Shown one piece after another: positions 1,136-44,239 of a DNA stretch of 64,000 nt. Made by a program: the position numbers and the translations under genes. The DNA comes from Lytechinus pictus (Eukaryota). Position 1 is the stretch's first letter, and every line of letters begins with the position of its first letter. The stretch covers positions 41,480,001-41,544,000 of the forward strand of contig NC_087251.1 in assembly GCF_037042905.1 (NCBI RefSeq). Reading direction: 5' to 3'. The notes under the pieces were generated by a model, which was not told where the DNA came from, ran no database searches, and was given only the letters and a program-made list of their open reading frames with translations.

Positions 1136-4100
1136 GTGAGTTTCTAAATAGAAGAACGAAAACAAGCTTCAAATTATTATAAGAAGTGGTTTAATTGAGG
1201 TTAAAATTGTATTTATGAGGATTTTCATATCAGTCATGTCCTCAAGAATGTTGAAAGTTTGCTCTTTTTTTAAATTCATATAAAGTGTATTTTGGTTGTC
1301 TTTATTGACTGATTTATCTTTTTTTTTTGGGGGGGGGCATGGTAGTGAAATATTGAAGTAAGTATGTTGTGTTGTTATTGCAGGTCATTCTTTTACTCTT
1401 TCAATTGTTTGTTTAAAATTGGCTCACCATAAGTTCAGTCCTTTTTATTGCAAGTAGCAACTTTACAGATTTGATTAGTATGAATTACACTTCATAAGTA
1501 TATCCTTCCCACCTGCACAAAATTCACAAATATGAAACATGATTATAAAAATCATTTTATACATTTGACATTAAACCCAGATTGATATCAGGCACAACAG
1601 TTCCTGTTTGTTTTTGTTTTTTACTTCCTTAGATTTGATTTATTGATTTCCGTTTTACAATTGTACATAATATGATAAACATAACATAACAAGGTCAAAA
1701 ATACTACAAGACATAATATAATATATATATATAACATAATCATAGATTTAAGGAAGACTTGCATGAATATTGGGACGATATCTTTTCATTGAATATTAGT
1801 CTATTTATTTTTTCGATTATATGAAAATAATGAATCTTGAATGTGTGCTTTGTTTTGATTTCAGAGAGCTTTGCCAATTCAGCATGCAGCAGCTAGGACG
1901 TTGTGTGTTCTAATGAGAAACTGTAGGAAGTTAGATCATAGACAAGACATGGTAGCTAAACTCATCCATGGTAAGTCACTTACTCAAATATAATGCTCGA
2001 TTTATACAAAAGCCCTGTACTACATGTCCATGGTATATGTATGATTATTACCTGTACAAGGCATTTTAGCAGATAGATAAATGTCATATTTCGCTTGCTA
2101 CGAGACCAACGGGGTAAACATTTGCCATATTGACCTCCCAGTGCTTTGCCCATAGGAACACTGTACAAAAACAGAGGGCAATATTGGCCATATTTCTGCT
2201 AGTGCGCTTGCGTAGTAGGAGCCGATTTTGATCGCTGATTTCAGTACCGGTATTTGCGAAATCTGGTTGCAACCAGTTTGTGAACCAACGCATTGTAGAT
2301 AATGTGCGGTGCGGCCAGTGCATACACATTCCAAGCTGATCAGATCCAAGCGCAAGATGTGTTAACTGTATGTGAGTGCCATGCATGATGCGCAACTGCG
2401 CGGTAATAATTTACGTCACGATTGCTTAGCAGGTATTAGTTCGCCAAGTTTGTGAATAACATGACATTAGAACTAGTGGTAGGCAAAGAGGCATATGAAT
2501 TATTCAAAATTTTAGCTTGAATTACACATTATTCAACTCTAGGTAATAATTATAATATTGACTGGCTCTTCTTTCAGGAAACATCAAATATGTTGCCCTT
2601 AAAAGAACCATATTGCCCTCGCCTAAAGGCTCGGGCCAATATGATTCCGTCGCGGGCAACATATTTGATGTTCCCCTTAACCCTATCTTAACTGGGCTAT
2701 TTCGGACCAGTAGGCCTATATACTGGGGGGGGGGGGTCAATTTGACCCCCCTCAGATCTCGGCTGCTGATTGCGCAATCGCCGCGAAAATTTGCAAGCGC
2801 GTAGAGCCGGATATAAACTACAAGAGTGTATAGTAAAATTTTCAACAACAAAAATTATGATACTTTTATTAATTAATTATGCAAATAAGCATGTGAAATT
2901 TGCCATAAATTTGTTTTTTTGTGTATGTATTTGCCTTTAACTCAATTTATATAGCTAGTAGAATGCTAATTTTTGGTGAGAGTATCAATTATTACATTTC
3001 TAACAAATATCTACAAAAACATAGCAAAAATATAATTAATTTCTTATGTATTTTATTGTTTTTTTAATTCTTATGTATTTCTTTGTTTTTTCAAACCTTT
3101 GTTTTTCCCGATGAACTTTGTCAAGGCCCCTTTTGTGATCATAAATAGCATAAAATAAATCCATTTAAACCAACAAAACTAAAAATAATCATACATTTAT
3201 GATTTTAGGTCAAAAAACACAATTTGCATTGACTTTTTACACGGAATCACGTTTTTGAGCAATTTCTGATGCGCAAGACTTGAAAGTAAAAAGTCAGTGA
3301 GCGGCGCAGTCAAAAAAATTTGTGCGACGGCGTAGTGACAAAATTTGTTGAGGGGGGGTCAAATTGACCCCCCCCCCCCCCCAGTTTAATAAGGGTTAAG
3401 GCCAGTCAATATGATATAATTTTATTTTCACGAGAACCTCCATAACAAATGACTGGTAATTCCCTGTGCATCGTGTACTTTTATCAGTCTTCTATAATAA
3501 GATAAAATATCTTATTTTAGATGAATTTAGATTAAGAATTTAAATGAATTTAGATACAGTAATATTTTCATAGTCATTCATATGCACAAGTAGGGAATAC
3601 TTCATGGTAATATGGACATTAAAAAACTTGCTAAATGCTTTAAATATTGCTTGTAAATACATTGCTTTTTTTTTTCTCTCTCTCTCTTGGTGCACAGTCA
3701 GCTGAAGAAAGTTGTCAATGTTCACTAAATGTTAAAATATCTGTATTTATATTTCTCTTTCTTGTTTTATAGAGTGCTGTAGGAGTAAAAGTAGTCGCTA
3801 TAGGAGGTTATACATTGACATATGTGTCATAGTTATGGAGATGTTCTCTAAATCATTCTTCAAGGATAATTTCATGGAGCCATTGATGGATCTCACAGCG
3901 GATCCTGTTCCTAATATCAGGTATGTAACAGGGCTTCAAGGAGAATTTCATGGAGCCATTGATGGATCTCATAACGGATCTTGTTCCTAATATTAGGTAT
4001 AAAGCAGGGCTTGAAGGAGAAGTTCATGGAGGCATTGATGGATCTCACAGCGGATCCTGTTCGTAATATCAGGTATGTAACAGGGCTTCAAGGAGAATTT

Positions 4101-7100
4101 CATGGAGCCATTGATGGATCTCATAACGGATCTTGTTCCTAATATTAGGTATAAAGCAGGGCTTGAAGGAGAATTTCATGGAGCAATTGATGGATCTCAT
4201 AGCGGATCCTGTTCCTAATGTCAGGTATGTAACAGGGCTTCAAGGAGAATTTCATGGAGCCATTGATGGATCCCATAGCGGATCTTGTTCCTAATATCAG
4301 GTATGTTACAGGGCTTCAAGGAGTATTTCATGGAGCCATTGATGGATCCCATAGTGGATCCTGTTCCTAATATTAGGTATGTAGCAGGGCTTCAAGGAGA
4401 ATTTCATGGAGCAATTGATGGATCTCATAGCGGATCCTGTCCCTAATGTTAGGTATGTAACAGGGCTTCAAGGAGAAGTTCATGGAGCCATTGATGGATC
4501 TCATAGCAGGTCTTGTTCCTAATATTAGGTATGTTACAGGGCTTCAAGGAGTATTCCATGGAGCCATTGATGGATCTCATAGCGGATCCTGTTCCTAATG
4601 TTAGGTATGTAACAGGGCTTCAAGGAGAATTTCATAGAGCAATTGATGGATCTCATAGCGGATCCTGTTCCTAATGTTAGGTATGTAACATGGCTTCAAG
4701 GAGAAGTTCATGGAGCAATTGATAGATCTTATATCTCAACAATTATGGTTCACATTTGGAAAAAATTCAGTGATTCCAAGAGAAGAATTTCTGTTTGAGA
4801 GATGTGTTTATTAAAAAAAATAAGAGTAGGCCTATATTTATTTGTCTAGTTATGATCTTTGGAACCAAATTTGATCAATCCTTTGAATTGATTTGATTTG
4901 TCAGGTTAAAGATGTGCTCTCTGCTTCCTCGGATCAAACATCAGATGAAGCTACCTGAGGACAGAGAGAATCTTCAAGCCTTGGAGTTGGTCGTTAGAAG
5001 GCTACTCTCATCAGAGAAAGATAAAGATGTAGATGTGGCCATTAGACAAGTGAGTGTTATTTACTTATTATTTGTTTTATTTCAAAGGTCAAGTCCACCC
5101 CAAAAAAATGTTGATTTGAATAAATAGAAAAAAATCAAACTAGCATAATGCTGAACATCATCAAAATCGGATGTAAAGTAAGAAAGTTATGGCATTTTAA
5201 AGTGTCGCTTATTTTTCACAAAACGGTTATATGCACAAATCAGTGACATGCAAACGAGACAATTGATGATGTCCTTCACTCACTATTTTTATTGTTTGAA
5301 TTGTACAATATTTCATTTTTTTTACAGATTTGACAATAAGGACCAACTTGACTTAACCATATAGCATTAAACAATGCTAATTCCACATGTTCAGGGAGGA
5401 ATTAATCATATTTCACTTGACACTAAGGAGAAAATTTGAATATTTCATATAATAAAATACAAAAGAAATAGTGAGTGGATGACGTCATTAGTCTCCTCAT
5501 TTGCATACCGACCAGGATGTGCATATAACTGTTTTGTGAAATTAAGCAAAACTTTAAAATGTCATAACTTTCTTATTTTACATCTGATTTTGATGAAATT
5601 TTCAGTGTTATGCTTGTTGGATTTTTCAGACCCCCCCCCCAGTCTTCTTAGGCATCAAAATAGCACAGTCTTTTGAGGATTAATAGGGTATTAGATGCAT
5701 TGATTTTAATCAGTAAAAGTAATAATTTTATGAAGTTTGGCTAGAAACAGAATTGCATTGGATGTGTCGAATAAGATCATGTTTTTAAAAGTAATTTTGG
5801 TTCTGATATGAACTTAAAATATTTTTTACATTCTTGACCACATACCCAGGCATTGTAATTGAAATTAAAAAGAAAAAAAGAAATGTGGCAGAAAAATCTC
5901 TTTGTAATATGGACTTATCATGCAAAGCAACCACTCTCCAGTGAGAATTAATTCTGTCATTTCTCAAAGATTTTAAAGTTTTTCTGTTATCATAAGAGTA
6001 CATTGATGACATTAGTGCCTAAATCAGCAGACTGCCTTGTGAAAGCTGGATGGTTAATAAGATGTTTTCACCGTTTATTTAAAGAGATCCTTTACTTTCT
6101 TTTCTTTTCTTGCAGGCTGTTTTTGAATTGGACAGAATACAAGTTCATGTAGACTCAGTAAGTTTACCCCCCCCCCTTCTCCACTTATACTTAAATACTT
6201 AAATGTGAATTATTCATCTAGAATATTAATAAAACAGACAGACATTTACCATTAGTATGATGAAATATTGAACTTCACTTTTTTTTAATTGTGTAATTGA
6301 TTACTAGAGGCTTTAGATAATGTGGGTTAAGGGTTTCCATGACATTGCTTCGGCGACAACTGCCATGATGGAAAGTATGCACATTAAGCCAAACATAAAA
6401 TCTGTCCTCCAAAACTAAATAAACCATAATCATTATTTTTACATTATTCTGAACCCAAAAATCTATGACAATGCTAACTCTAACCCTATGCCCTCTGAGA
6501 TATTAAGACCAGAGCAAATGTCGCAGGAGCATATGTGGTGTCACCGGTTTGGTATTTGAATTAGATAGTGGCGGGACACCACTGTAATTTTTGTAAGCAG
6601 GGTCCCAGCGCCAAGGCTCCGATCAGGACCTTGCGCACCAATTGAAAAATAATTACAGAAATCTAAACTGATTCAGATCGTTAAGTTATCACTATTCATA
6701 CAAAAATTTTCACATGATATAAAAATTTGAATGATTGAAATCAAAGTATAGAAAGAAGATCACTGAGCAAGATTTCTCAATGATCTTGTTTGAATTTATC
6801 GACCTCCAATGTTACGATGTTGTTTTGAAATTCTTGATTTTTTTCTATCACCTTTCTAGCTGAACATGTCACAGTATTACGAAGACGACATGCAAGACAG
6901 AAAGAAAGAGGCTGAGGAACGTTCCATGATGGAGATTGAGAGAAGGAATATGGATGAAGGAATAGAGAAAGGAGCAAGAGAGAAAGGATCAGCCAGGCAT
7001 ACAGAGAAGAAGAAAGAAAAAGAGAGCAAAACAGAAAAGAACGTTCATACACACAGTCAATCTAATCCAGCATCCGCTCCATCAACTTCTTCAAGAAAAG

Positions 7101-10100
7101 GTTTGTCAATTGATCAAAGCGCAATATTTGTGCAGTTTTCTGAGTTGGAGTGATCTGTTTAACTTTGTATTGTGTGTGTATGATATTATTTGGTCTTGAT
7201 TTTATTCCTCTTCCGTGTAACTCTTTATACATTATGCTAATGTGCAGTATCGAGGAGAAAAAGAGGACACACACATGCACAAATGCTTACACATGAAAGA
7301 CAATTAGATAGAAAATTGATAACAGGTAAAAAAATAGTAAGAATTGCTTGTAGAGAGTAGGTTTGATTCAATATACTAATGAGAGAATTGGCATTGCCCT
7401 TTTTCAAGAGCCAGTTTTAGCAGTGATTTGGTATAGGGGATGCTTGAATTAGTCTTTATATTTAATATTGGTTTGTGTGTCTGTTTAATTATTATCCACC
7501 TTTATGAAGGTAAAGTTTTCACCTTTTAGCTTATCCACACTGATTTGGTTTGCATGTTTTGCTCGAGGGCGTTTTTTTTTTCCACTCCATTTTATTCATA
7601 AAGATTGTCTCATAATACTTGATAAATAAGACAGTTTATTAGTTTCTTAGCAATATCAAAGCTTTGCATATTATTAGAATGCACAATGTGAGTTATATAA
7701 TTTCAATTTGCATGATCATTTGATAGATAAAATAGATTATTTTGGTACATAGATTTGTTATTTAGAAAAGGGTAGCTGTGCATGATTCTTTGGTTTTAGC
7801 TCAATGCAGTGGTGTTATCTGAAGCATTTATTTATATATTTTCTTTGTACTCCTCCAATATTTTCCTTTTCATTTTAATATTCAACTTGATTGATTATTT
7901 GATCGTGATTTTTTTTTTGTAGGAGGTTAGTTTCTCATTTCATAGAGTCTAGGAAGTACAATTATGCTGATATTGCTTTTCGATACTCAAATTTGATTAA
8001 GATTTCTTTTAAAGCTCATTTGATTGTTCTTTCACATTCAAGTGCAATGTCATGCTTTAAAACTATCATAGGAATGGCATTTACAAGCTTTGAAGTTTTC
8101 TTTAGTCATTCATTCTAGGGTTTCGTTTTAAAAATGTACAACAAATTCAAATTTTTCTATGAAAGCTTGACATCAGCCAGTAAAAAACTAAATTTTCTTG
8201 TCTTTTAACATTTTTCAGAATTTTGTTTTTCTGATTTTTTATACGAAGGCACATTTTATATTTGAGACTCTAATCTCCTAATCTTAACCACTGCATGAGT
8301 TTGCTGTGCTTGCTTTGTTTCTATCCTTCTTTCCACTCTATATCTCTTTCTGTTTGCAGTGTCTAAAAGCACCAGCCACAAACACAGTAGTACACCGTCA
8401 GGGGGCAAGAGCTTCCTGACTAATGGCCCCCAAACTAGCAAAAATATTGCCTCGTCATCATCAACCAAAAGCTCAGTCTCGAATGGTCCCCACTCGGGCA
8501 AAAATGTTGCTTCGTCATCAACAAAGAGTTCGGTGTCTAATGGTACCCCCACTGGCAAAAATATTCCCTCGTCATCAGCAAAGAGTTTGGTGTCTAATGG
8601 TCCCCCTAGTGGCAAACATAATGCACCAACATCGTCTTCCAGGAAGACTTCCCCTCCACAGGGTCCTCCAATGAACACTGCTATTAGAGGTATGAAGCAT
8701 TTAGATGATACTCTGGAGTATTTAAAGAGGGTTTCGCACTGAGCCTGTGTAGAGCTACATAGTTTTGCATGCCGACTACGCCAAAGTTGGCTGAATGCTT
8801 ATGGTAGGAAAAATATTGCTCCTTGCACGATTGACGTAGTTATGGAATTTTTTATTGCAATTATGAAATGAAGTCTGGATATTTCTTTAGACTAGCGCAG
8901 GCTGGCGTACTCTTGTGCAGGTACATCATAGAGAAGCGTAGCTTTGCGTATAAATCTTGCACCATTGTGTAGTAATGCATAGACTTCCGTAGAAATAAAG
9001 AGTCTAAGAAGTGTATGCTAACATGATTGTATATAGTATGGAAGATGTTGATTATCGTGGTAGTATAGAATCGGTAAAGGAAATAATCTGTTGTCTCACG
9101 ATGCGGCAAACTGAAATTGCGACGTTGCGACTGCACCTGCTAGTCTTCGTCAGGCAATGAAGTGGACAATCGCTGTGTGCGCCTTTTATACCGTAAGCTG
9201 CGTGCCGTCGGTGCCGGCACCGCCGCGCTACGATTGGTCGGAGTAACCGACCAATCAGGGCAGCTTACGGTATAAAAGGCGCACGCAGCGATTGTCCACT
9301 TCATTGCCTGACGAAGACTAGCAGGTGCAGTCGAAACGTCGCAATTTCAGTTTGCCGCATCGTGAGACAACAGATTATTTCCTTTACCGATGATTGATTA
9401 TGTTTTGCATACATGTACCTTGATGTTGCCCTGTCCTACAGTGCTGTAGACCATTCATTGTAGGCATCGCATAGAGTCTATGCAAGTTCATGTAACTCTA
9501 CGCAAAGCTTGGTGTGAAACACTTCAGAGAAAAAAAAAGCTTGTTATAAATTTGAATAGTCTTACAAAACCATGACGACTTTGATAATTCAAAGGTGCTT
9601 CCTTGATGCATGCTTGTGAGAAATACTTAAACAAGGAAGTGAAATAGTTCGAAAATTATATTAAGAAAGCATTGTGTTGTATTATCAAATGATGATAATT
9701 CTTTATAAATGTAAAGTATGAATTCAGATTCATTTAATGAATATTGAGTCTTTCATATGTGGGTATCAAACTTGTTCTTGTATAAAGTATTCATCATGGT
9801 TTGAGCTCTGCCCATGTGAACCCAACACTAAATTTCAGTATTAATTTTCATGCCTGTTTTTCACCTACATGTACAAAAACTAGCATAAAGACTTTTGCAA
9901 ATAAATTTATTATACTTAAACCTGCTAGTAAGAGATTGGTCCATGTAGATGAATAATTCTTATCAGGTCAAATAACCATTATCTAAAAGAGCCTTTCTAC
10001 TTATTTTTATCAAATGAACCGAACATTGCTTAATGATAAAGTCTATCTAATTGATATTTTTTTCTGTTGGCTACACTTATTTCTTGTTTTTTTTAAACTA

Positions 10101-13100
10101 TATTTTAGGTAGAATTATGACTTGACATGTATGTTTAGATTTCCTTGCTGTTGAAAACTCAATATTAGATCGCTTTCTACTCTTTAACATTTTTTCACTG
10201 GAGCTTTGGTTGAGACCACTATACCATGATGTGATATAGATATAAATGATGATGTATTTATATTTTTGACCATTTATAAAGGAACAAGAACTATTATTTG
10301 GACTGTTTATTTTGATGTAGTCGGAAGCTCTTAGTTTCACCCCATGGAAAACTGATATTCAAAGGCCGCCATTATCAAATCAGCAATTTTATCATATTTT
10401 TCATTGACCTTGTACACTGAATATTAATGAATAAAACAATATCTTATGTTCTGTTCTTTTCAAACAGGAAAAAGTAAGTGGTCCTGTTTATTGTTGTATT
10501 AGACATTGGATATTCATTAGTTCATTTCACTGCATAATACTTTTTAAACCAGAAATACTGTTACATTAATCCATTATTTTCTGTTATATTTCCATTCATG
10601 AAAGCAAAAGGAGTAAATAAATATTAAAAAAAATAATGTGGATAAACAATAATATGTGGAAGAATATTGAATACCCCATAAGTGAAAACCCATAATTTCA
10701 TTTTATAGTTCCATATATATCTCACTTTTCATTTTGTTTGTTTGATTGAAAGGTGATTCAATGCATGACGAATTTTCATGTCAATGTATGCATGCATAAT
10801 GCATGCTGCATGCTTTTTTATTATCTTCTCATTGTATTCTAGTATATGCATGGATTAATGATTTCTTTATGTGATTTTAAATAACAATTTCTTTATTGTT
10901 TAATGCATAAAATATAATGTGCTTTGTACCCTTCACTGCAAGCATTGAATTTCACATCAAAGAATGGATTTAGTTGGGTATTTTCTACAGGATAATTGCA
11001 CAAAAATGATTAACGCATTTTAAATGTTGGTTTATTTTGCATATGAATATAGTTATCTTTTAATATTTACTGCAAAATAAGTTAATCATTTGAAAATGTA
11101 TTAAATTGCATTCTACATTACAGCTGATTGTACTAGTCATAACTGCATGGAAGCCATATTCAACTTTTTTATTTTCTCATCTAGTTTATATACATGAATT
11201 TTATATTCTTTAATAGCAATAATGATGATAATGTTGATTTAGTACTTCATGCAATTCATTGTATGCCATTTTCCATTAAGCTTTAATAGCTGATTATAAT
11301 CATAAATAAGGAACTTTTACATATGTTTTTTTAAATATAGACAAGAATGCCTGGAAACATTGATAAGCATGTGGCATGTCAACCAAACAGGATTATGTCT
11401 GCAATTTTCCATTCTGTGAAGTCTTTATTTCGACTTTTTTAAAATCATTTTCATCGTTTGTTTTATTCTGTGTTTGTTGTTGAAGAGATGCATTATTTTT
11501 TTATATATTTTTTTTTTATTGAACTACACGTACCTTTGTTAGGGCTTTGTAAAGTTACATTACAAAGGCACATTCTACATACACTATTGCAGGGGGAAAA
11601 ATCTGTCATTTTTTGTTATTTTTTAAAGTTGAATGACAGATTCTTATAATTTCTTATGTCGAGGGTGGAAAGGTTACATCGAATGTATTGTACTTCGTTC
11701 ATTTTGTGCAAATTTGATCTTTTGTTACATGAAATTTGATGAAGGTGAAGCACGTAACATTTTCTTCATTGCTTTGTTTAGTACAATGGGCTTACAATAC
11801 TACTATGAAGTTTATCCCTGCGATTAGATATGAATGATTAGATACATTGATGTTACTAAGTGGATTTTATTCAAGTTTATTAGGCATTATCAAACTAAGA
11901 ATGTTCCATTAAATAGTGAATTAATCTGTTATTTTAGCTGGAAATCTCTCCGGTTCTATTTTGTAGTATGATTAATCAGAATTGAAGGTCATGTTATTTC
12001 TTTTAGATGTGATGTTACAATATGATATTATTTATTATGTGTAATAGGATGCATTCATTACATGTATATGCATGATTATATGTTTTCTCAATCTTTGTAT
12101 TGTCTGTCTGTTTGTCTATAGCTGCATCTCACAAGGCCCAGAAAGCACCCAAGAGTGAGGTATCATCAGCGCCCCCCTCTAGGACATCCACCAGGGCGGG
12201 GAAGAAGTCACCCTCGGCTACTCTCCTTGAACCAAATAATAACGTCAAGTCAACCACAAGGTAAGGGGGCATCTTAGATAAAGGACAGAGTGGGCGGTTA
12301 TCACTGGCTTATTTGTTCTGGGCCAATCAGGTGCAAGGATTTGCATTATTAGCTTATAACAATTGTCAGTGAAACACTATTTCTTTCATGAAATGCTCCT
12401 TAAATTAGATTCTTGAGCCCATCTTGCCAAGATATGCTTGATTCAAATCGCACCTTTATTGCGATTGTTCTCAGCTGCTATTGATTAAGTAAATAATTGA
12501 GATTAATATTAATGTATTTAACCAGGAATAAGCTGAAAACCTTTTTGTGTTATAGAAAATGGTCGTGCACTTATTTCATTAAACATTGAGTATCACTGAA
12601 GTTCTGAAAGCTACAGATAAATCTCTTTGGTAGTGATTGAGAAAAATAAGATATAAAAGGGAAGTGGTGAACTGAAGGAACTAGAACATCGATGTAAGAT
12701 ATAGGAGAAAAAAAAAGATTTACCCATATAGACACACAGAGAATAGCTAAGTGATATGGAAAGGAGCCATAAACAGGTCATAAAATCTTGTGAAAATAAG
12801 GTTTTTGAAGATATCATTGTAGGATATGTTTATGAATTTCTTTATCTCTCCTTTCCTATAACACTTTCCATTTGTCTATGCTGGCTTTTCAATTTCAATA
12901 TTCAATCTTCTCTGATGAAAGACAAAGAATTTCCTTCATTAAGCTTCCTGATTGTAAAAGAAAACTTTGATGTTTTCCTGCATCACCTTTTCCTCATTTC
13001 TAAGCATTTTGATGTTGAAAGCCTTTTTTGTACTGAATACCTTTTGGCATCTTCGCTTGCAATGCTTGATGGGATAGCATGGATGCATTGATTGTTTTCT

Positions 13101-16100
13101 TTGTTTGAACAGCCGTAATAGATCTGGTTCTGATGGCTTGCTAGCTACGTCTATGATGCGGAATACAAGGTTTATCCATCGCTTCTAACTCCTGCTTACA
13201 GTTTGGCTCTAAACCACTTTCTCTCTCCTTTCGCTCTGTAGTTATCACATATTTGCCAGGCAAATGTATGTGTAACATCTTTCTTTATTTAAAAATCGCC
13301 TTTCTTGTCTGGCTTTCATGGTTCTTCTGGTGCTTTTATCATTGTCGTACTTGTGTTCTCCTTTTCCATATGCCATTTCATTCATTTATAAAAACAGTTT
13401 GAGTGTCAGAAATATGGCTTTATATTTGGTTTTCCATGATTGGTTCCTGTCAAGTTGAAAAGTGTGTGCTTGTTTTGAATATTATGTTTACATAGGATAT
13501 TAATTTGTGATTCTAATAAACATGTATGTATGTTTTTACTTCATTGTAAAGCTGCAAGTTCAATTTACATGCTTACTTTTTATGTGATTGAATTGAATTG
13601 AATTTATTCAAACCAGTCAAAGGAGAACAAAATACAAACAAAATAAATGGTTACATTATAAAGAACTAAAACAAATGGCAGGTTTGGGACCCCAAAGAAG
13701 CACAGCTTGTAATCAGGGGCCCCTGCATTAGATATTTTACTCAAACATGGAATAACTATGAATAGAAGAAAAAAAAATACAAGGTATTTAAAGATCACAA
13801 CAGGAACACTACCCACACGCAAGCATACACACACTCACACAGACAAACACACACATTCACACTCCAAACATGTCACCCCCAGGTGCAACTAACAACTGGT
13901 CTTAAATTTATCAAGTAGGTATTTATGACATAATTTCTTAAACCGAGATAGGGTACTGCTACTTCTTATATCAGCAGGACACATATTCCATTCTTTAACG
14001 CAAATTGTTCTAAAGGATTTCAATGTAGCATTAATTCTAGCATAGGGTTGGTGAATAAGATGTCTCTGACGTGTGTTATAATTATGAATCTTAGAATTAA
14101 CCACAAAAGTTTCTTGTAAAAAAGAACAATGCAGGGATTGGTATTTATGTGATTGAATTGTTTAATTGTTGTGTGCTGTGATGTAAGTTTACATAATTTA
14201 TTTCAGGATAAGCAGTCCTTAAGATGTGATAGAAATTATGAGAAATAAATATAAACAATGAAAACAAAAATTTCAATGAAAGTGTTAGTATTGATCAAGC
14301 AATGACAAAGCTCAAAATATCTGTACTAATCTATATTCTAATAATAATAATAAATTTAATTTAATAGGCACTATATCCATCTTGTGAGAGGTGCTCAAGG
14401 TGCACAAGTGAAGGGGGGAGCAAAAAAAATAACAAAGGAATTTTATACTGAAAAAAAAAGATCATTGATAAAAAGAGTTATGGAGTTAAGTTTTTAGCTT
14501 GATCTTAAATGTTTCGTCACACTTGCTATCCCGGATCTCTCGTGGGAGGGAATTCCATGGCGAGGGCCCCGCATAGATGAATGCCCTTCCCCCCACTTTG
14601 TTTTACATTTTGGAACTGATAGAAAACCAGAGTCACTGGAGCATAGAAGCCTAGAAACCAAAAGGTTAAGATATGCCCTTAAAAAATGTTATTAATATTT
14701 TGATTGATATCAAACTCATATTTAGGTGATGGTAACTTGACATTTCCCTTTCATGTCCCTGCTTAAATGAGATAAGTACCATAAATTGTACAGTGTATAC
14801 ATGAAAGTGTTTCACAACCTCCAAAAAATAAGAATGCGGTTTGTAGCTTTGCATCATTACCCCCTCCTCAGTGCAACAATAATCCAGTATTTTAAAACAA
14901 GGAAAAAGAAAAACAAAGATATCTGATGATTTTCCAGTGATTCAATCGCTTGCTGCATGCACTTATTCATGCTTCCATGCAATAAACATGGTTTCATCAT
15001 TGATGCCTTTCATGAAAAAAAATAACTTCACTGATTTTTTTTTGTGGTTGATTTTGAAATAAAAACATTAATGACCTTATCTTATGAAATTGTTTGACAG
15101 TGTCAGTTTGAAGTGGGCTTTAAAGGTAAAAAAATATATAAGCATTGCTTCTTTTGTATACAGTAGGCCATGTCCATTTTCATCTTTATGTCTGTATGAA
15201 TAGCTTAAAGGGGAATGAAACCTTTGGAATAAGTAGGCTTGTATGGAAACAGAAAAATCAAAGAATAAGAACAAAGAAAGTTTGAGAAAAATCGGATAAA
15301 TAATGAGAAAGTTATGAGCATTTGAATATTGCAATCACTAATGCTATGGAGATCTTCCCATTGACAATGCGACAAGGATGTGTGATGTCACATGTGAACA
15401 ACTTTCCCTTTGATGGACTATAAAATACCCTCAAAATGTCTCTTTCTGCTTTTTCTTGTGGTGATACAAACTCTTTATCTATGATGTATTCTTAAAAAAT
15501 CTGTATTACATGCCCTCCTTTAGAAAGAACACATGATCTACTGATAGATGTGATAAAAGAGGCAGTTTAAGTGAAATATATACTAAAGTAATGGGGAAAG
15601 TTGTTTACAAGTGACATCACACGTCTTTGTCGCATTGCCAATTTGAGAATCTCCATAGCATTAGTGATCACAATATTCAAATGCTCATAACTTTCTCATT
15701 ATTTGTCCAATTTTTCTCAAACTTTTGTTGATCTGTTTCTTTGATTTTTCTGTTTTCACACAATATATCTTGTTCCAAATGGTTTCATTCTCCTTTAACA
15801 TGCAGACTGTTTGCAGTGAGACACGGTTCCCTAACAACTCATCTCTGTGACTGTACATACTAATGGAAGTATATTATTATCATTTTGTTTGACAGAACTA
15901 CAAGGGTTCTAGAATACAGTAGTTCCTTATCATCTCCTACAGCCAGCAGTGCAGCTAAAAGATCAACTAGTGGAACACATGTATCAGGTATGCACTATCT
16001 GCAAGGATATGGGAGTTCAGCTTGAAGCTGATTTCAGCTACCCCCCCCCCCCCCCCAGCTTATTCTCAGCTGCTTGTGTACTTTGGTTGTACAAAAGTAT

Positions 16101-19100
16101 TAGAGCTTTTGAAATTTCTGTGATGTTCATATTTGGTCACTCACCTATTTGTATCTGATGAAGGAGGGGAGAAGAAAGGGGGGGGGGAGGATGGGGGAGT
16201 AGTGAAGAGGAAGGAGGAGAAGAGGAAGTAGGAGGGTAATGCACTTAGTAGGAAGAAGGAGTAGAAAGAGAGAAGAGGAGGAGGAGAAAGGGTGAGAAAG
16301 AGAGAGGGAGAAAGAGGAGAAGGAAGAAAGAACAGGAAGAGGAGGAGGGTGGAGGGTGGTGCACTAAGTAGGAAGAAGGAGTAGAAAGAGGAGAAAGGAT
16401 GAGAAAGAGAAAGGGAGAAAGAGGAGGAGGAGGAGAAGAAGAAAGGAGAAGGAAGAGGGTGATACACTTAGTAGGAAGGAGGAGTAGAAAGAGAGAAGAA
16501 GAGGAGGAGAAAGGATGAGAAAGAGAAAGAGGAGAAGAAAGGAGAAGGAAGAGGAGAGGGTGGAGGAGATGCACTTAGTAGGATGAAGGAGTAGAAAGAG
16601 CGAAGAAGAGGAGGAGAAAGGATGAGAAAGAGAAAGGGAGAATGAGGAGAAGAAAGAGGAGGTGGTGTAGGGTGATGCACTTAGTAGGAAGAAGGAGTAG
16701 AAAGAGAGAATAAGAAGAGGAGAAAGGATGAGGAAGAGGAGGAGAAGGAAGAGGAGGTGGTGTAGGGTGATGCACTTAGTAGGAAGAAGGAGTAGAAAGA
16801 GAGAAGAAGAGGAGAAAGGATGAGAAAGAGATAGGGAGAAAGAGGAGGAGGAGAAGAAGAAAAAAGAAGGAGAAGGAAGAGGTGGAGGGTGATGCACTTA
16901 GTAGGAAGAAGGAGTAGAAAGAGAGAATAAGAAGAGGAGAAAGGATGAAAAGGGAATGAAAAGGGTGGTGAACATAAGCATGGAGGAATAGAAAAGAGAA
17001 AAAGGGAGGGGAGAACATTGAGAAGGAGGAGGGAAGAGGGAGGGGAGGAGGGAATAGGGAGGGGGGAGGGAAGGAAGAATAGAGAGTGGTTAATGTATAT
17101 CTAAGTCAGAAGTATACAAGAACTTGTGTAATTTCTTGCATTGTTAATACTCTCTAAATGACACGTATTCTTTCCTTGTTCAATGTTTATAGAATCCAGG
17201 AAGTCTTCAGCATCATCAGTCAGCTCAACTCGGTCCGGCAATTCTTCTTCTAGTCATCTATCAACTTCAACCTCTTCAACCAGAGTGTAAGATATGAGAC
17301 AATATTGTGATGTTAATAGGACGGTGTACTCATTGAGATGCTCTTAACCCTTATTAAACCAATTTACCCCCCCTCGACAAATTTCATCACTACGCCGCCG
17401 CACAATTTTTTTTACCGCGCCGCTCGCTTTCAAGTCTTGCGCATCTTTTGAGACCAAATTTGCGACGCCCGGGTACGCGGTTCCAAAATTAAGCAATAAT
17501 TTGTAAGTGCATGTCAGACCAAAAATTGCTCAAAAACATGATTCCTTGTACAAAGTCAATGCAAATAGTGTTTTTCAACCAAAAATCATAAATGTATGAT
17601 TATTTTTACTTTTGTTGGTTTAAATGGATTTATTTAAGTTATTTATGATCGCAAAAGGGTCCCCGACAAATTTTAAATTTTGAAAATTTTACTATACAGT
17701 CTTGTAGCTTACATCTGGCCCTACTCGCATGCAAATTCTCGCGGCGATTGCGCAATCAGCAGCCGAGATCTGAGGGGGGGGTCAGTATATCTTGGACTGA
17801 AAAAGCCGAGTTAAGATAAGGTTAAAGACTGTCCTTAACCCTAAAAGGAGGCTAAATACCCCCCCCCCCCACACACACACATACAAAATTGATATTTTTC
17901 TATTTATTACTCATTAAATTTTGTGCCTTCCTATTTCACTCATTATGTGCAAGATCAAGTTCACTTTTGCTTGGCATACAGATTCAAAGCTTCACATGGT
18001 TTGGTGCTAGCATGTTGGAACTTATAAAAACTGCTTGAAAACATTATTTCTTGAGAAATATTTGTGAAATGTCAATGCCAGTAATGTTTTTGTTTAATAT
18101 TATCTTTTTGAAAACATTTGGAGAAGGTGTGTCTATCAGGATCCCAAGTATATCAGAATATAGATTATTGAGACAACTTGACATATGATCAGTATGATTA
18201 TAAAAGAAAAATGAACTCTCTGGCCAGTGTTCTGAAGTCAGGTTTAAAGGGGAATCCAACCCAAATAAAAACTTGTTGTTATAAGGAAAAGATAAATCAG
18301 ACAAGTTGATAGCTGAAAGTTTGAACAATATTGGACAAACAACAAGAAAGTTATTGAATTTTTAAAAGTTGTAAATATTGGTAATCACTATACCCATGGA
18401 GACTTCAAATTGGCCAGATATGGGATGTCATAGTGATGTAAGGCAAGGACTACTCTTCCATGTACTCCAATACATATTATGGCTAAAATGTCATTTTTCC
18501 CAAAAGTTTTATTTCAAATTATATTTTTCTTTCATGAGGACATAAAACAATATACTACCTGGGTTATATTTAGATTACTGCCCCAGGGGAATGGGTACTT
18601 AGGAGAAAACCACAAATCCCTGATAATAAAGTACATGGCTTATGGGAAAGTTGTCCTTGCCCCTTGTCATAATTTACTTACCCAGTTGCCAATTTGAAAT
18701 CTACATAGTATTAGTGATCTCAATTTTAAAACAGCTATAACTTTCTTATTGCTTGTCTGATTTCTTTCAAATTTTCACCATTCTGTTTAATTCATTTTTC
18801 TCCTTCCCAACACAAGATTTTATGGCCAAGGCTGGATTCCCCTTTAACTTAGACCACAGTCTAATTCTAAAATTATGGGGAGCCAAAAATTCTGTTTATA
18901 TTGTATATATCTTATGTTTACTAATTTATTTCCTTTTGCTTTCATAATGAAGAAAAATACTTCAAAATACATGTACTATAGTTATTCCCATACAATTATG
19001 AACTATTTGGGTGTCATATGATAGTAAATTGGATTTGTGCCCCAATTAGCTCTTCATAGTTAAGCCACAACTTTAAACCAGGGTTTAATTCAAACCCGAG

Positions 19101-42045: not shown

Positions 42046-44239
42046 TTTTAGGATTGAGTTGATGGTCGTCTGCTGTGCATTGATAGCAGAAGCATCATGG
42101 CTGTATACCGTTTTCCAGCAAAGATATACCTTTTGGAAATTACCCAGGGTACAGTGCGTTCTCAAATAAAAATTTAGTTTTCATGCAAAATATGACTTTT
42201 ATCATAGGTGTTTTAGTCTCAACAAATAATCTTATTTGACGTATCTTGTATTTACAATGACAGATATTATAAAAAATACAGTTAAATCTACTTTTTATAG
42301 TGCCCCAAAAAGAAATGCTTTATGGGTATAAAGAATTCGCGAAGAAGGTAAAAGGTGTAGACGAGATTTACGAACGTGATTTTTAGATGGATCTCGTGAA
42401 CGACGAGAAATTATCCCTGTTAGATTTTGCTGGTAAAAAATTGTTCAAGCACAGTCACAGAGCCATCAATGTAGGTAAGTGAGATAAATCGACCAAAATA
42501 TTATAAATTTCATCACAAATGCGTTATAAATTATTGAGGACATATTATATATGATATGAGAGTTGACCCTTAAATCAAGTTATTATAAATTCTATGTATA
42601 TAACCTACATAATCCTGTTCAATTTGCAATCGAAATTGTCTTGTGTCTTGTGAGAATCAATGAATGTGAGACTGACATTGACAAACTAGTGAGAGAGTGA
42701 GACCGATTGAGTCAGCTGAGGCGGAGTGCATTGCATTCTCACAATGGGTGATTTCTGGTGTTGGTGTTGTGACAACACCAGCCACATCACACTCATTCTA
42801 TGATGAACAAGGTTCTTCTTCTGTTGAGTTCAGTCCTCTTTACCATGTTTACAGAATGTTATGAACTTAAGTTATGATCATGATGATAGACTAGACAGCT
42901 GGCAGCTGCCTGTTTCGAGGAGTTTTTTAACATCTTTAATTTTTTTTATTTTAAATTTCTCCTCGTACACAGACGGCTCGCTATCATGCAGCCACCATTA
43001 GGGGGTTAATGCAAAATCCCCCCGACTGGGCTCATTGATTTTTGTCTTTATTTCATAAAAATATATAAAAAGAACTGTACCAAAATAAAGCTAGATTATC
43101 ATTCTGTTTTGGCCTGAAATGCACCAAACGGGGAAAAATAAACTTAAAAGGGGGAAAACAGCGACTTACTTTGGCTGTCGCGCAACTTCACTTCCCTGTT
43201 TTATCCGAACTTAATACAGAAATATGGCCATCGAGTCCCTGTACAGATCGAGCTAGAACTTCGGTCTCTGTATTTGGTGAGTAGAGCCAACAGAGTTCAG
43301 CGGAACAGCCAACATAACAAGAGATCGAAGCTTTTGGTCTAGGTTATGATCACTAGCTCACTGCAACCATCCTGCCTGTGGGGAATCGACAGGTAGGACT
43401 ATGGTATGCCAATGCTGTACAGAGCACACACTTTAAAAAATCATTAAAATATCACGTTTGTGACCAAAATTTCTAATTTCCATACAGTTGCAATTTATTT
43501 GTCATTAGTAACTTGGGAATAAATTTTGTATTCACCAGAGCGCTCAAAAACTTGAATTTGGGGCATATTTTTGTGTACGCCCTCTATTGTTGGAAAGTAA
43601 TATGGCAAGAAAATTTTCATTTTTCAATCTCTATTTTTAATTAAGAAAAAAATGATTTAAAAAATCAAATTTACTTAAGAGCCAAGTTGTATCATGAAAA
43701 GGTGTAATTGAAACTGTCAGTGTAAAAAATCAAGCCTTTGTCCCAAAGAAAAAGAGAAAATAAGCCCAACATTGCTACCCTTATTTTGCTACACATGGAG
43801 ATATAACAGAGAACAAGGTTATATCATAACCTTGTTCATTGAATGAGTGGTTATGATATAACCTTGTTCTCTGTTACTACACATCCATAAGAATAATCTC
43901 ATTTCAAAGGTCAAGTCCACCCCAGAAATATCTTGATTTGAATAAATGGGAAAAATCAAACAAGAATAACGCTGAAAATGAGGAGACTGATGACATCACT
44001 CACTCCCTATTTCTACTGTATTTTATCATATGAAATGTGAAATATTCTAATTTTCTCACGTAATAAGGCAGGGCTCCACACTAACCCTTTTTTCTACTGG
44101 TCCAACCTATTCATGTCGGACCAGTAGATACCCAGATTTTCCGAACCTAAAATCTACTGGTCCCAAAAAATAAAGAAAACCTTTAAAAAAGGAGGAGTTT
44201 ATTTTGCTGTCCTTTCTTGTAACCCCCCCCCCCCTCCAA

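Follow-up and report, generated by a model that had tools for sequence, protein, structure and literature searches.

Does a nearly perfect inverted repeat within an intron, carrying a hammerhead-like motif behind a TATA box, act on its host gene, or is it the remnant of a mobile element? This question is raised by a locus in a 64,000-nt stretch of the Lytechinus pictus genome (NCBI RefSeq assembly GCF_037042905.1, contig NC_087251.1, positions 41,480,001–41,544,000 of the forward strand). We refer to this whole stretch as the window, and the coordinates of the insertion are window positions. According to our analysis, a single integration of a canonical, endonuclease-bearing Penelope-like element (PLE), of a family that we call X, very probably left two 5′-truncated 3′ ends of the element head to head, and the resulting copy is inert. 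The intronic insertion is a neutral relic. The class to which it belongs, PLE twin insertions with minimal hammerhead ribozymes (min-HHRs), is already described, and the window feature is a further member.

A repeat search identified two arms of 132 nt each (9070–9201 and 9260–9391), which are 98% complementary and separated by 58 nt, as stated in a preliminary description of this DNA. The same description had called the structure a perfect palindrome; the inverted repeat stands, but two mismatches (9127/9334 and 9176/9285) make it nearly perfect. The hairpins that it placed in the spacer were located at 9209–9222 and 9232–9256, and the order that it gave for the plus strand, CCAAT (9251) followed by TATAAAAG (9271–9278) and the hammerhead-like motif (9303–9345), was also found. 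Folded as RNA, the region forms a single hairpin of −292.4 kcal/mol, as compared with −103.8 ± 4.7 kcal/mol for 100 dinucleotide shuffles (z = −40), none of which folded equally well (0/100). A strict hammerhead descriptor, requiring a helix I of at least 5 bp, a helix II of at least 4 bp and a fully palindromic helix III, gave one match in 200 dinucleotide shuffles of the 64-kb window on both strands. The combination of inverted-repeat fold and hammerhead motif is not a chance occurrence. Two further loose descriptor matches in the real window, at 43987 on the plus strand and 25129 on the minus strand, look like chance.

The insertion spans approximately 9035–9390, wider than the 9070–9391 given originally; it includes a 35-nt tail, which moves its start to about 9035. 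It is composed of the following parts:

9023–9034, no strand: probable target-site duplication, left copy (ATGATTGTATAT); matches 9390–9401 at 10/12 positions and abuts the insertion
9035–9069, minus strand: optional PLE tail of 35 nt, joined to the 3′ end of the left, minus-oriented copy
9070–9259, minus strand: left copy, the last 190 nt of family X, 5′-truncated (blastn 9071–9258: 93% over 188 nt, minus strand, against an array-nested X fragment)
9116–9158, minus strand: left-copy hammerhead motif with A13 changed to C (GCAA); cleavage-site equivalent 9121/9120
9183–9190, minus strand: left-copy TATAAAAG box, the mirror of 9271–9278
9232–9256, no strand: inverted CCAAT pair (ATTGG..CCAAT) forming a 10-bp hairpin, within the promoter-like region of the left copy
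9260–9390, plus strand: right copy, the last 131 nt of family X, 5′-truncated and without the tail (blastn 9260–9395: 95%, plus strand)
9271–9278, plus strand: right-copy TATAAAAG box, 37 nt before core C3 and 32 nt before helix I; promoter use putative
9303–9345, plus strand: minimal type I hammerhead motif, sequence-intact; predicted cut 9340/9341
9390–9401, no strand: probable target-site duplication, right copy (ATGATTGATTAT); its first base is possibly the last base of the element

The two copies join at 9259/9260. What had been described as a spacer (9202–9259) corresponds to the extra inner 58 nt of the longer copy, and the hairpin in it is formed by the inverted CCAAT pair that the element itself carries. 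An ATTGG..CCAAT arrangement is also located upstream of the TATA box in an X copy nested in a tandem array (discussed below) and occurs twice in a second PLE family, Y. The left copy ends at the same element base as nine other loci, and the end of the right copy, ..TTTACCGA, is likewise the ending seen at other loci.

The right-arm motif reads ATTGC-CTGACGA-A-GACT-(9 nt)-AGTC-GAAA-CG-T-C^GCAAT on the plus strand. Helix I is formed by 9303–9307 with 9341–9345 (ATTGC/GCAAT), which make five standard pairs. The core boxes CUGACGA and GAA occupy 9308–9314 and 9333–9335, respectively; an extra A (9315) precedes helix II, which pairs 9316–9319 with 9329–9332 (GACT..AGTC). The ACGU palindrome spans 9336–9339 and is followed by C17 at 9340, so that position 17 is an H, and the predicted cut site is 50 nt away from the 3′ end that the X copies share. 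Each of the published sequence criteria for a PLE min-HHR is found in the right arm, including the terminal location in the pseudo-long terminal repeat (pLTR). In the left arm all helices are intact, but the second core box reads GCAA instead of GAAA; the preliminary description had noted this difference between the disabled antisense copy and the intact sense copy, and the minus-strand copy confirms it.

Predicted folds do not favour cleavage at this site. In the lowest-energy fold of the right-arm monomer alone, GACG of the core is paired with CGUC, and no dimer can form in cis because the two motifs lie on opposite strands. The upstream arm, which is made first, would engage the right arm in a duplex of 132 bp (the −292.4 kcal/mol fold), in agreement with the earlier suggestion that the antisense arm could sequester the motif. 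Cleavage by a monomeric minimal hammerhead held in such a hairpin would be unlikely.

To place the arms in a family, we compared loci from the same assembly (812 Mb; numbered L0xx), in which the arm has at least 88 matches. Ten loci were analysed, the window and nine other dispersed X loci, and all ten stop at the same element base (..TTTACCGA), with varying inner break points. Head-to-head inverted pairs are present at seven of the ten, the window included, although the second arm of L007 is weak (72%); the remaining three loci contain single, non-inverted copies. Among these ten loci, a full or partial tail is found at one end of every twin insertion (7/7) and at none of the single ones (0/3). 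The tail sequence is on the left side at L003, L021 and L026 and, as the reverse complement, on the right side at L002, L007 and L025. Abutting repeats of 11–14 bp were identified at three of five other twin loci (13/14 matches at L026, 12/14 at L021 and 9/11 at L007), and a comparable repeat was absent at the remaining two of the five, L003 and L002. The pieces of X measure 29–281 nt against the array-nested reference and 132 to more than 500 nt against a longer copy; measured against the latter, they have no common 5′ end. We had considered a discrete 5′ end, as starts seemed to cluster at unit positions 2544–2577, and rejected it as an artefact of the nested-fragment reference, since the lengths are continuous against the longer copy.

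The near-perfect inverted arms and the flanking 12-bp direct repeat (10/12) would also fit a miniature inverted-repeat transposable element (MITE) or a foldback DNA transposon, in which the 132-bp arms would be terminal inverted repeats and the direct repeat a target-site duplication. The preliminary description had regarded such features as speaking against its own reading. Arms resembling terminal inverted repeats and a target duplication are indeed present, but we read both as products of PLE integration. In longer copies, the sequence of the arms forms the 3′ end of an element that has a frame of the PLE endonuclease type, the two halves are asymmetric (190 versus 131 nt, with a single tail), no two loci share their inner junctions, and three of the ten loci are single and non-inverted. 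An origin from a MITE or foldback transposon is therefore almost certainly wrong.

The connection to a canonical PLE is provided by longer X copies (L004, L005, L026 and L075–L079), which extend upstream into a PLE-type linker and a frame with a GIY-YIG pattern and a cysteine/histidine motif (..LDSVVYKIPCVACDKVYIGETGRP..ERMLEH..AEHAWN..NRDNGIDIP..W..). The pattern VVYKIPC..C..YIGETGR..R..EH can be read directly in L075, L076, L078 and L079. The hammerhead motif is located downstream of the PLE endonuclease frame in L004, L075–L078, L080 and L081. Longer database homologues of the X linker/endonuclease piece matched PF26215 in nine of nine cases and PF00078 (RVT_1) in two of nine, and those that are named come from sea urchins. 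In sister families 61–63% identical to X, the matches fall in open frames of up to at least 898 aa. The genome-wide search with the arm that the preliminary description had proposed thus appears to place the longer copies beside a GIY-YIG-pattern frame. Its view of a PLE-derived, protein-free insertion is upheld, the arms being a 3′ end shared with copies that reach the PLE endonuclease frame, and the sequences support its assignment to these PLE 3′ ends of a minimal hammerhead motif of type I, in which helix III is a palindrome of 4 nt.

The same description had likened the insertion to a retrozyme, a non-autonomous, short and protein-free hammerhead unit that spreads via circular RNA. The insertion is protein-free and has hammerhead motifs, and animal retrozymes are reported to derive from PLE pLTRs (Li et al, 2026, preprint). 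However, it contains no direct or tandem repeats (Tandem Repeats Finder, run over 3500–17300 with a minimum score of 150, reported none at the insertion), and motifs on opposite strands yield no excisable unit-length RNA. Furthermore, X copies without a common 5′ end, ranging from 132 to more than 500 nt and reaching into the endonuclease frame, represent the 5′ truncation of an autonomous element. We consider a retrozyme-like element highly improbable here.

Both core boxes, GAAA included, are intact in 10 of 13 dispersed X copies, a count that leaves out one copy with a helix II deletion (removed by a script filter). Because 10 of the 13 have GAAA, the GCAA of the left arm is a derived state. 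All features are intact in 4 of the 13, among them the right-arm motif of the window. The motif decays among X copies like neutral DNA, mostly at CpG sites.

Transcription of the locus was analysed over 7900–12500 in three ribo-depleted RNA runs with the same species label (X18, X19 and X20), of which about 6% each was read. The host features in this region are:

8358–8687, plus strand: upstream exon, expressed (RNA depth in three runs, loose end at 8358, junction at 8687)
8688–12119, plus strand: host intron holding the insertion (junction 8687→12120, GT..AG)
12120–12260, plus strand: downstream exon, expressed (RNA depth)

The junction 8687→12120 is covered by 8, 28 and 8 reads in X18, X19 and X20, respectively (44 in total). 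The first mate of a stranded library is usually complementary to the RNA. Here the first mates map to the minus strand and the intron reads GT..AG on the plus strand, which together fits a plus-strand gene. The insertion is therefore intronic and its sequence-intact motif lies on the sense strand of the host, as originally described. The intron is spliced normally, and the intron bins flanking the element have zero depth. Reads that cover the element run into foreign sequence at 9068, 9283, 9308, 9314, 9345 and 9391 or differ from it at fixed positions (at 9356, for example, 8/8, 7/7 and 24/24 minus-mate reads have C>A), and therefore stem from other, transcribed copies. No read of the three runs could be assigned to the window copy, and no pile-up of read ends was observed at 9303 or 9340/9341, where the reads belong to other copies. 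The self-cleavage and use of its own promoter that had been proposed for the window copy are not borne out by these data.

These observations bear on the possibility of a functional intronic ribozyme and promoter, in which the hammerhead would cut the host pre-mRNA or a TATA-started RNA and alter host output. Such a role would suit a motif that is on the host sense strand, is among the four fully intact copies, and follows a TATA box at a spacing conserved in three families (36–37 nt from the core, see below). Against it stand the normal removal of the intron with empty adjoining bins, the foreign flanks or fixed mismatches of all reads over the element, the lack of a read-start pile-up at 9341 or 9303, the burial of the motif in the pre-mRNA hairpin, the GACG–CGUC pairing of the monomer and the free decay of other copies. 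In addition, single minimal PLE hammerheads are described as having no detectable cleavage in vitro, and dimers as having low activity (PMC4209133). We regard a functional ribozyme at this position as very improbable.

Alternatively, the hairpin might have been co-opted as a source of double-stranded RNA, either for endogenous small interfering RNAs or as a substrate of adenosine deaminases acting on RNA (ADARs), regulating the host or silencing X. A 132-bp near-perfect duplex would form in the pre-mRNA. The preliminary description had suggested looking for A-to-I editing over the hairpin, and no A>G cluster was seen over the arms in the roughly 6% of the three runs that was read, nor any read from the window copy. 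The twin architecture is also the default integration product (7/10 loci). Co-option of this kind is extremely improbable. As a separate observation, at least 3–4 other X-fragment loci are transcribed on both strands within longer RNAs, and one recurring flank follows the element end in reads of all three runs.

The host, for which the preliminary description had proposed the name PPP4R4, is a putative HEAT-repeat phosphatase-subunit-like gene, as judged from one upstream exon-like frame at 947–1138 that resembles proteins of the PP2A-A/PP4R1 type by language-model features. Several other features of this region were recorded. A second junction form, 8690→12122, has five extra A between its sides and is represented by 3 reads per run in the three runs; it may reflect an allele or an alternative donor. 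Within the exon 8358–8687, a 57-bp unit repeated 3.5 times (8420–8624) codes for a serine-rich repeat and shows many allelic RNA differences. A 76-bp unit repeated 11.5 times with 89% matches (3858–4733) contains a frame like a host HEAT-repeat exon (..FMEPLMDLxADPVPNIRY..) and looks like a tandemly amplified fragment of an exon plus splice site. Finally, a purine-rich tandem repeat with units of approximately 106 and 223 bp (16225–16956) is responsible for the base skews of the bin 16001–18000 (GC 0.405, AT 0.253).

Next to the RNA data, comparison with related elements indicates what the module at the 3′ end of X might do in a complete element. We sampled four families, X, Y (L080 and L081), Z (L082) and F7 (L069, minus strand; an element not assigned further), and tabulated their helices by script, as a MAFFT alignment of them was out of register. 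The linker/endonuclease piece of Z is 47% identical to that of X, and identities for three families range from 47 to 62%. Of the two Y loci, L081 carries a homologous tail and L080 lacks one. The hammerhead architecture occurs at the same place in Y, Z and F7 as in X, together with the extra A and the G10.1–C11.1 pair. The helices vary as follows:

Helix I: AUUGC/GCAAU, UCAC/GUGA or GCUU/AAGC; wholly different in Z and F7
Helix II: GACU/AGUC, GUCU/AGAC or GAGU/ACUC
Helix II, single pairs: 10.2–11.2 is A-U or U-A; 10.3–11.3 is C-G or G-C
Positions 15.2–16.2: CG or GC, with ACGT in X and Y and AGCT in Z and F7
Pair 15.2–16.2 across families: C-G or G-C

The core of family Z reads UUGAUAA (L082:271–277), with U3/A8 in place of C3/G8; a U3-A8 covariation of the core has been reported for Cercyon elements of Schistosoma (PMC4209133). 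Read at the level of sequence, the changes between families are compensatory.

The distance from the first T of the TATA box to the first core base is 37 nt in X (window 9271–9308), 37 nt in Y (L080 and L081) and 36 nt in Z (L082:235–271). The order of TATA box and hammerhead noted in the preliminary description is shared by three PLE families, and this fixed spacing may be new. From the spacing, transcription is predicted to start at the first base of helix I. A more far-reaching proposal, which we consider unlikely, is that pLTR RNAs start at helix I, that the hammerhead serves as a 5′-terminal cap remover, and that the right arm possibly still fires and is copied in trans. Were this true, a leader of about 38 nt would carry the cap away on cleavage, and the remaining element RNA would begin uncapped with a 5′-OH. 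The right arm of the window would then be a full mini-unit of promoter, ribozyme and reverse transcriptase (RT) entry site, able to fire within the host intron, and the enzyme of a sister family that is still alive, for example Y, could copy it in trans. Family Y shares the ..CATCGTGAGACAAC.. entry region with X and may be active, because the open frames around its matches (C7:27068448 and C21:3771893) reach 852 and 898 aa.

For the twin insertion itself, we infer an origin by two-strand priming from published PLE biochemistry. With purified PLE protein, nicking and extension are reported to occur on both DNA strands (Frangieh et al, 2024; PMC11167929), and two internal RT start sites bracket the tail in vitro (PMC11167929). 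An optional tail of 30–40 bp is described as a feature that no other elements have and that often occurs at just one end, and inverted 5′-truncated copies have been reported for these elements (PMC8557442). By analogy, the endonuclease of X would nick both strands of the target, and reverse transcription would be primed on each strand from the 3′ region of the element RNA, once at the start site that includes the tail and once at the start site without it. Two short cDNAs, primed at one staggered break, would abort early, meet and be joined. Two start sites, one per cDNA, would account for one tail per twin locus. Each copy would bring in the 3′ module, composed of the inverted CCAAT pair, the TATA box, the minimal hammerhead about 32 nt further on and the RT entry region. 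In a full tandem element this module would be the pLTR, with the transcription start on or close to the first base of helix I, and the hammerhead may trim the element RNA, either by dimerizing or with the aid of helper factors.

Several observations weigh against this account of an inert PLE twin insertion. The search with Rfam hammerhead models that had been proposed earlier gave no match to the window motif: no hammerhead family matched over 8800–9700 even at E ≤ 10, and none reached its gathering score over the whole window. However, the same models also miss every other PLE hammerhead examined (5/5 other PLE loci tested), and the negative result is therefore uninformative. The target duplication is imperfect (10/12) and lies in AT-rich DNA. 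No Pfam match to GIY-YIG or RVT_1 was obtained on three X fragments at E ≤ 0.1. Among the matches listed there is no full-length RT-bearing copy of X, the nearest being fragments of 79–87% identity. In family Y, no more than 2 standard pairs make up helix I; a 2-bp helix I has been described in Drosophila virilis (PMC4209133). A published PLE hammerhead, from anole, was dispensable for insertion in vitro (PMC11167929), and no RNA-seq ends were reported at its cut site (PMC11167929). Finally, the ribozyme activity, the promoter activity and the mechanism of two-strand priming are all properties that we infer.

The array-nested X fragment used as a reference above comes from C15:1878000–2022400, where two large blocks of tandem Hydra-clade PLE units lie in opposite orientation (loci L008–L020, L022–L024 and L027–L060, with L029 examined in detail). 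The units measure 2829 bp and about 3244 bp, the longer ones containing an extra inverted X piece, and most have an open RT frame of 509 aa. We considered this array as the parent element of the window arms and rejected it. Homology is confined to the last ~281 nt of the unit, the dispersed copies extend upstream into a different, canonical PLE endonuclease frame, and a separate, relic hammerhead of the Hydra type follows in the array after about 100 nt. From these homology limits and the separate hammerhead it follows that the array units carry a nested X fragment, presumably inserted before the array expanded. The nested X hammerhead has G5 changed to A in 17 of 18 array units examined. The tail of the window insertion shows weak similarity (score 22) to array sequence 32–66 nt after the X end. 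One degenerate Hydra-type hammerhead per unit (L029:1111–1164 and 3940–3993) scores 27.8 bits with a model of this type (R1), which gave 8.5 bits and E = 4.7 for the window motif.

The array protein family shows every Hydra-clade diagnostic listed in section 11 of Craig et al (2021; PMC8557442), namely:

RWK motif
DKT in place of DKG
CxCX5C linker
CxxC and CxH around the conserved E and N
unit length below 3 kb
(TA)n targets in sister families

At least 3115 database relatives of this protein family were found at E ≤ 1e-10 among the scored candidates. Pfam gave no match on pieces of the array open reading frames (ORFs; E ≤ 0.01) or on three full-length sister ORFs (E ≤ 1), and neither phmmer nor a profile search found an RT match to Hydra-clade ORFs among PDB sequences. 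An AlphaFold model of an intact, 74%-identical relative, P0001 (L062:2–2191), has a predicted local distance difference test (pLDDT) score of 85.9. In a Foldseek search with this model, 8 of the 11 top matches were telomerases, with E values of about 1e-7, and other reverse transcriptases were also recovered. It is the predicted fold alone that would tie the Hydra-clade PLE proteins to telomerase-type reverse transcriptases.

Hydra-type hammerheads in this assembly have a 4+1+4 palindromic helix III (for example ACCG-C-CGGT), follow the ORF in 12 of 13 loci sampled, and lie 15–50 nt from the 3′ end; in their helix I, six positions each show three different kinds of pair. Those listed here all escape the Rfam hammerhead models:

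L062:2484–2537
L064:2231–2281
L065:2336–2382
L071:372–411 (minus strand)
L068:166–215
L063:912–951 (minus strand)

Several Hydra-clade copies end in (TA)n microsatellites. Directly after such a (TA)n tract, beside a Hydra-type element, L064:2277–2789 holds an open frame of 171 aa with a GIY-YIG-like C-terminus (..ESFWIYKLKTLYPHGINVEE), which probably belongs to another PLE inserted in the same microsatellite.

For the host gene, the insertion is probably without consequence, as it is removed by splicing. For annotation, near-perfect intronic palindromes with hammerhead motifs are, in this genome, the default product of PLE integration (7/10 loci) and should not be taken for regulatory ribozymes, and current Rfam hammerhead models overlook all PLE hammerheads examined. 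The presence of exactly one tail per twin insertion means that natural insertions fit the published biochemistry of two start sites and two-strand priming. The combination of sea urchins with PLE hammerheads was not found in the literature searched, although supplementary files of the cited papers may hold echinoderm examples.

Among known systems, the right-arm motif compares most directly with the min-HHRs of metazoan PLEs (Cervera and de la Pena, 2014; PMC4209133). Shared features are the CUGANGA and GAAA boxes, the short helix I (5 bp here), the unpaired base between positions 9 and 10.1, the G10.1–C11.1 pair, and the lack of a real or stable helix III, in place of which there is the palindromic ACGU (15.2–16.2, the basis of dimers). 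The location in the PLE terminal repeat region is the same, and the U3-A8 variant recurs in family Z. The pairing of motifs on opposite strands of a truncated PLE is likewise shared, pairs 100–700 bp apart being described in the same paper, the text of which gives no echinoderm example. Helix II differs, with 4 bp in the window as compared with 7–8 bp in the Schistosoma families (PMC4209133). The architecture of the insertion matches published complex PLE insertions in its 5′ truncation, abutting inverted copy and tail at one end (Craig et al, 2021; PMC8557442; PMC11167929). In those, the inverted copy usually stands beside a full-length unit (PMC8557442), whereas both copies in the window are short (190 and 131 nt) and contain the terminal module only.

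Animal non-LTR retrozymes are likewise protein-free, hammerhead-bearing and related to PLEs, but they consist of direct tandem repeats that give rise to circular RNAs, whereas the inverted pair in the window provides no excisable unit. Twin priming of the long interspersed element LINE-1 offers a further parallel, as two cDNAs made from the two sides of one staggered break produce an inverted, 5′-truncated structure. In LINE-1, the second primer anneals internally on the same RNA, which inverts one copy; in contrast, both window arms end at the 3′ terminus of the element, implying two initiations at the 3′ end. MITEs and foldback elements share with the window insertion long terminal inverted repeats and a target-site duplication, but the latter is distinguished from them by its retroelement 3′ ends, its asymmetry, the variable inner junctions and the existence of single copies.

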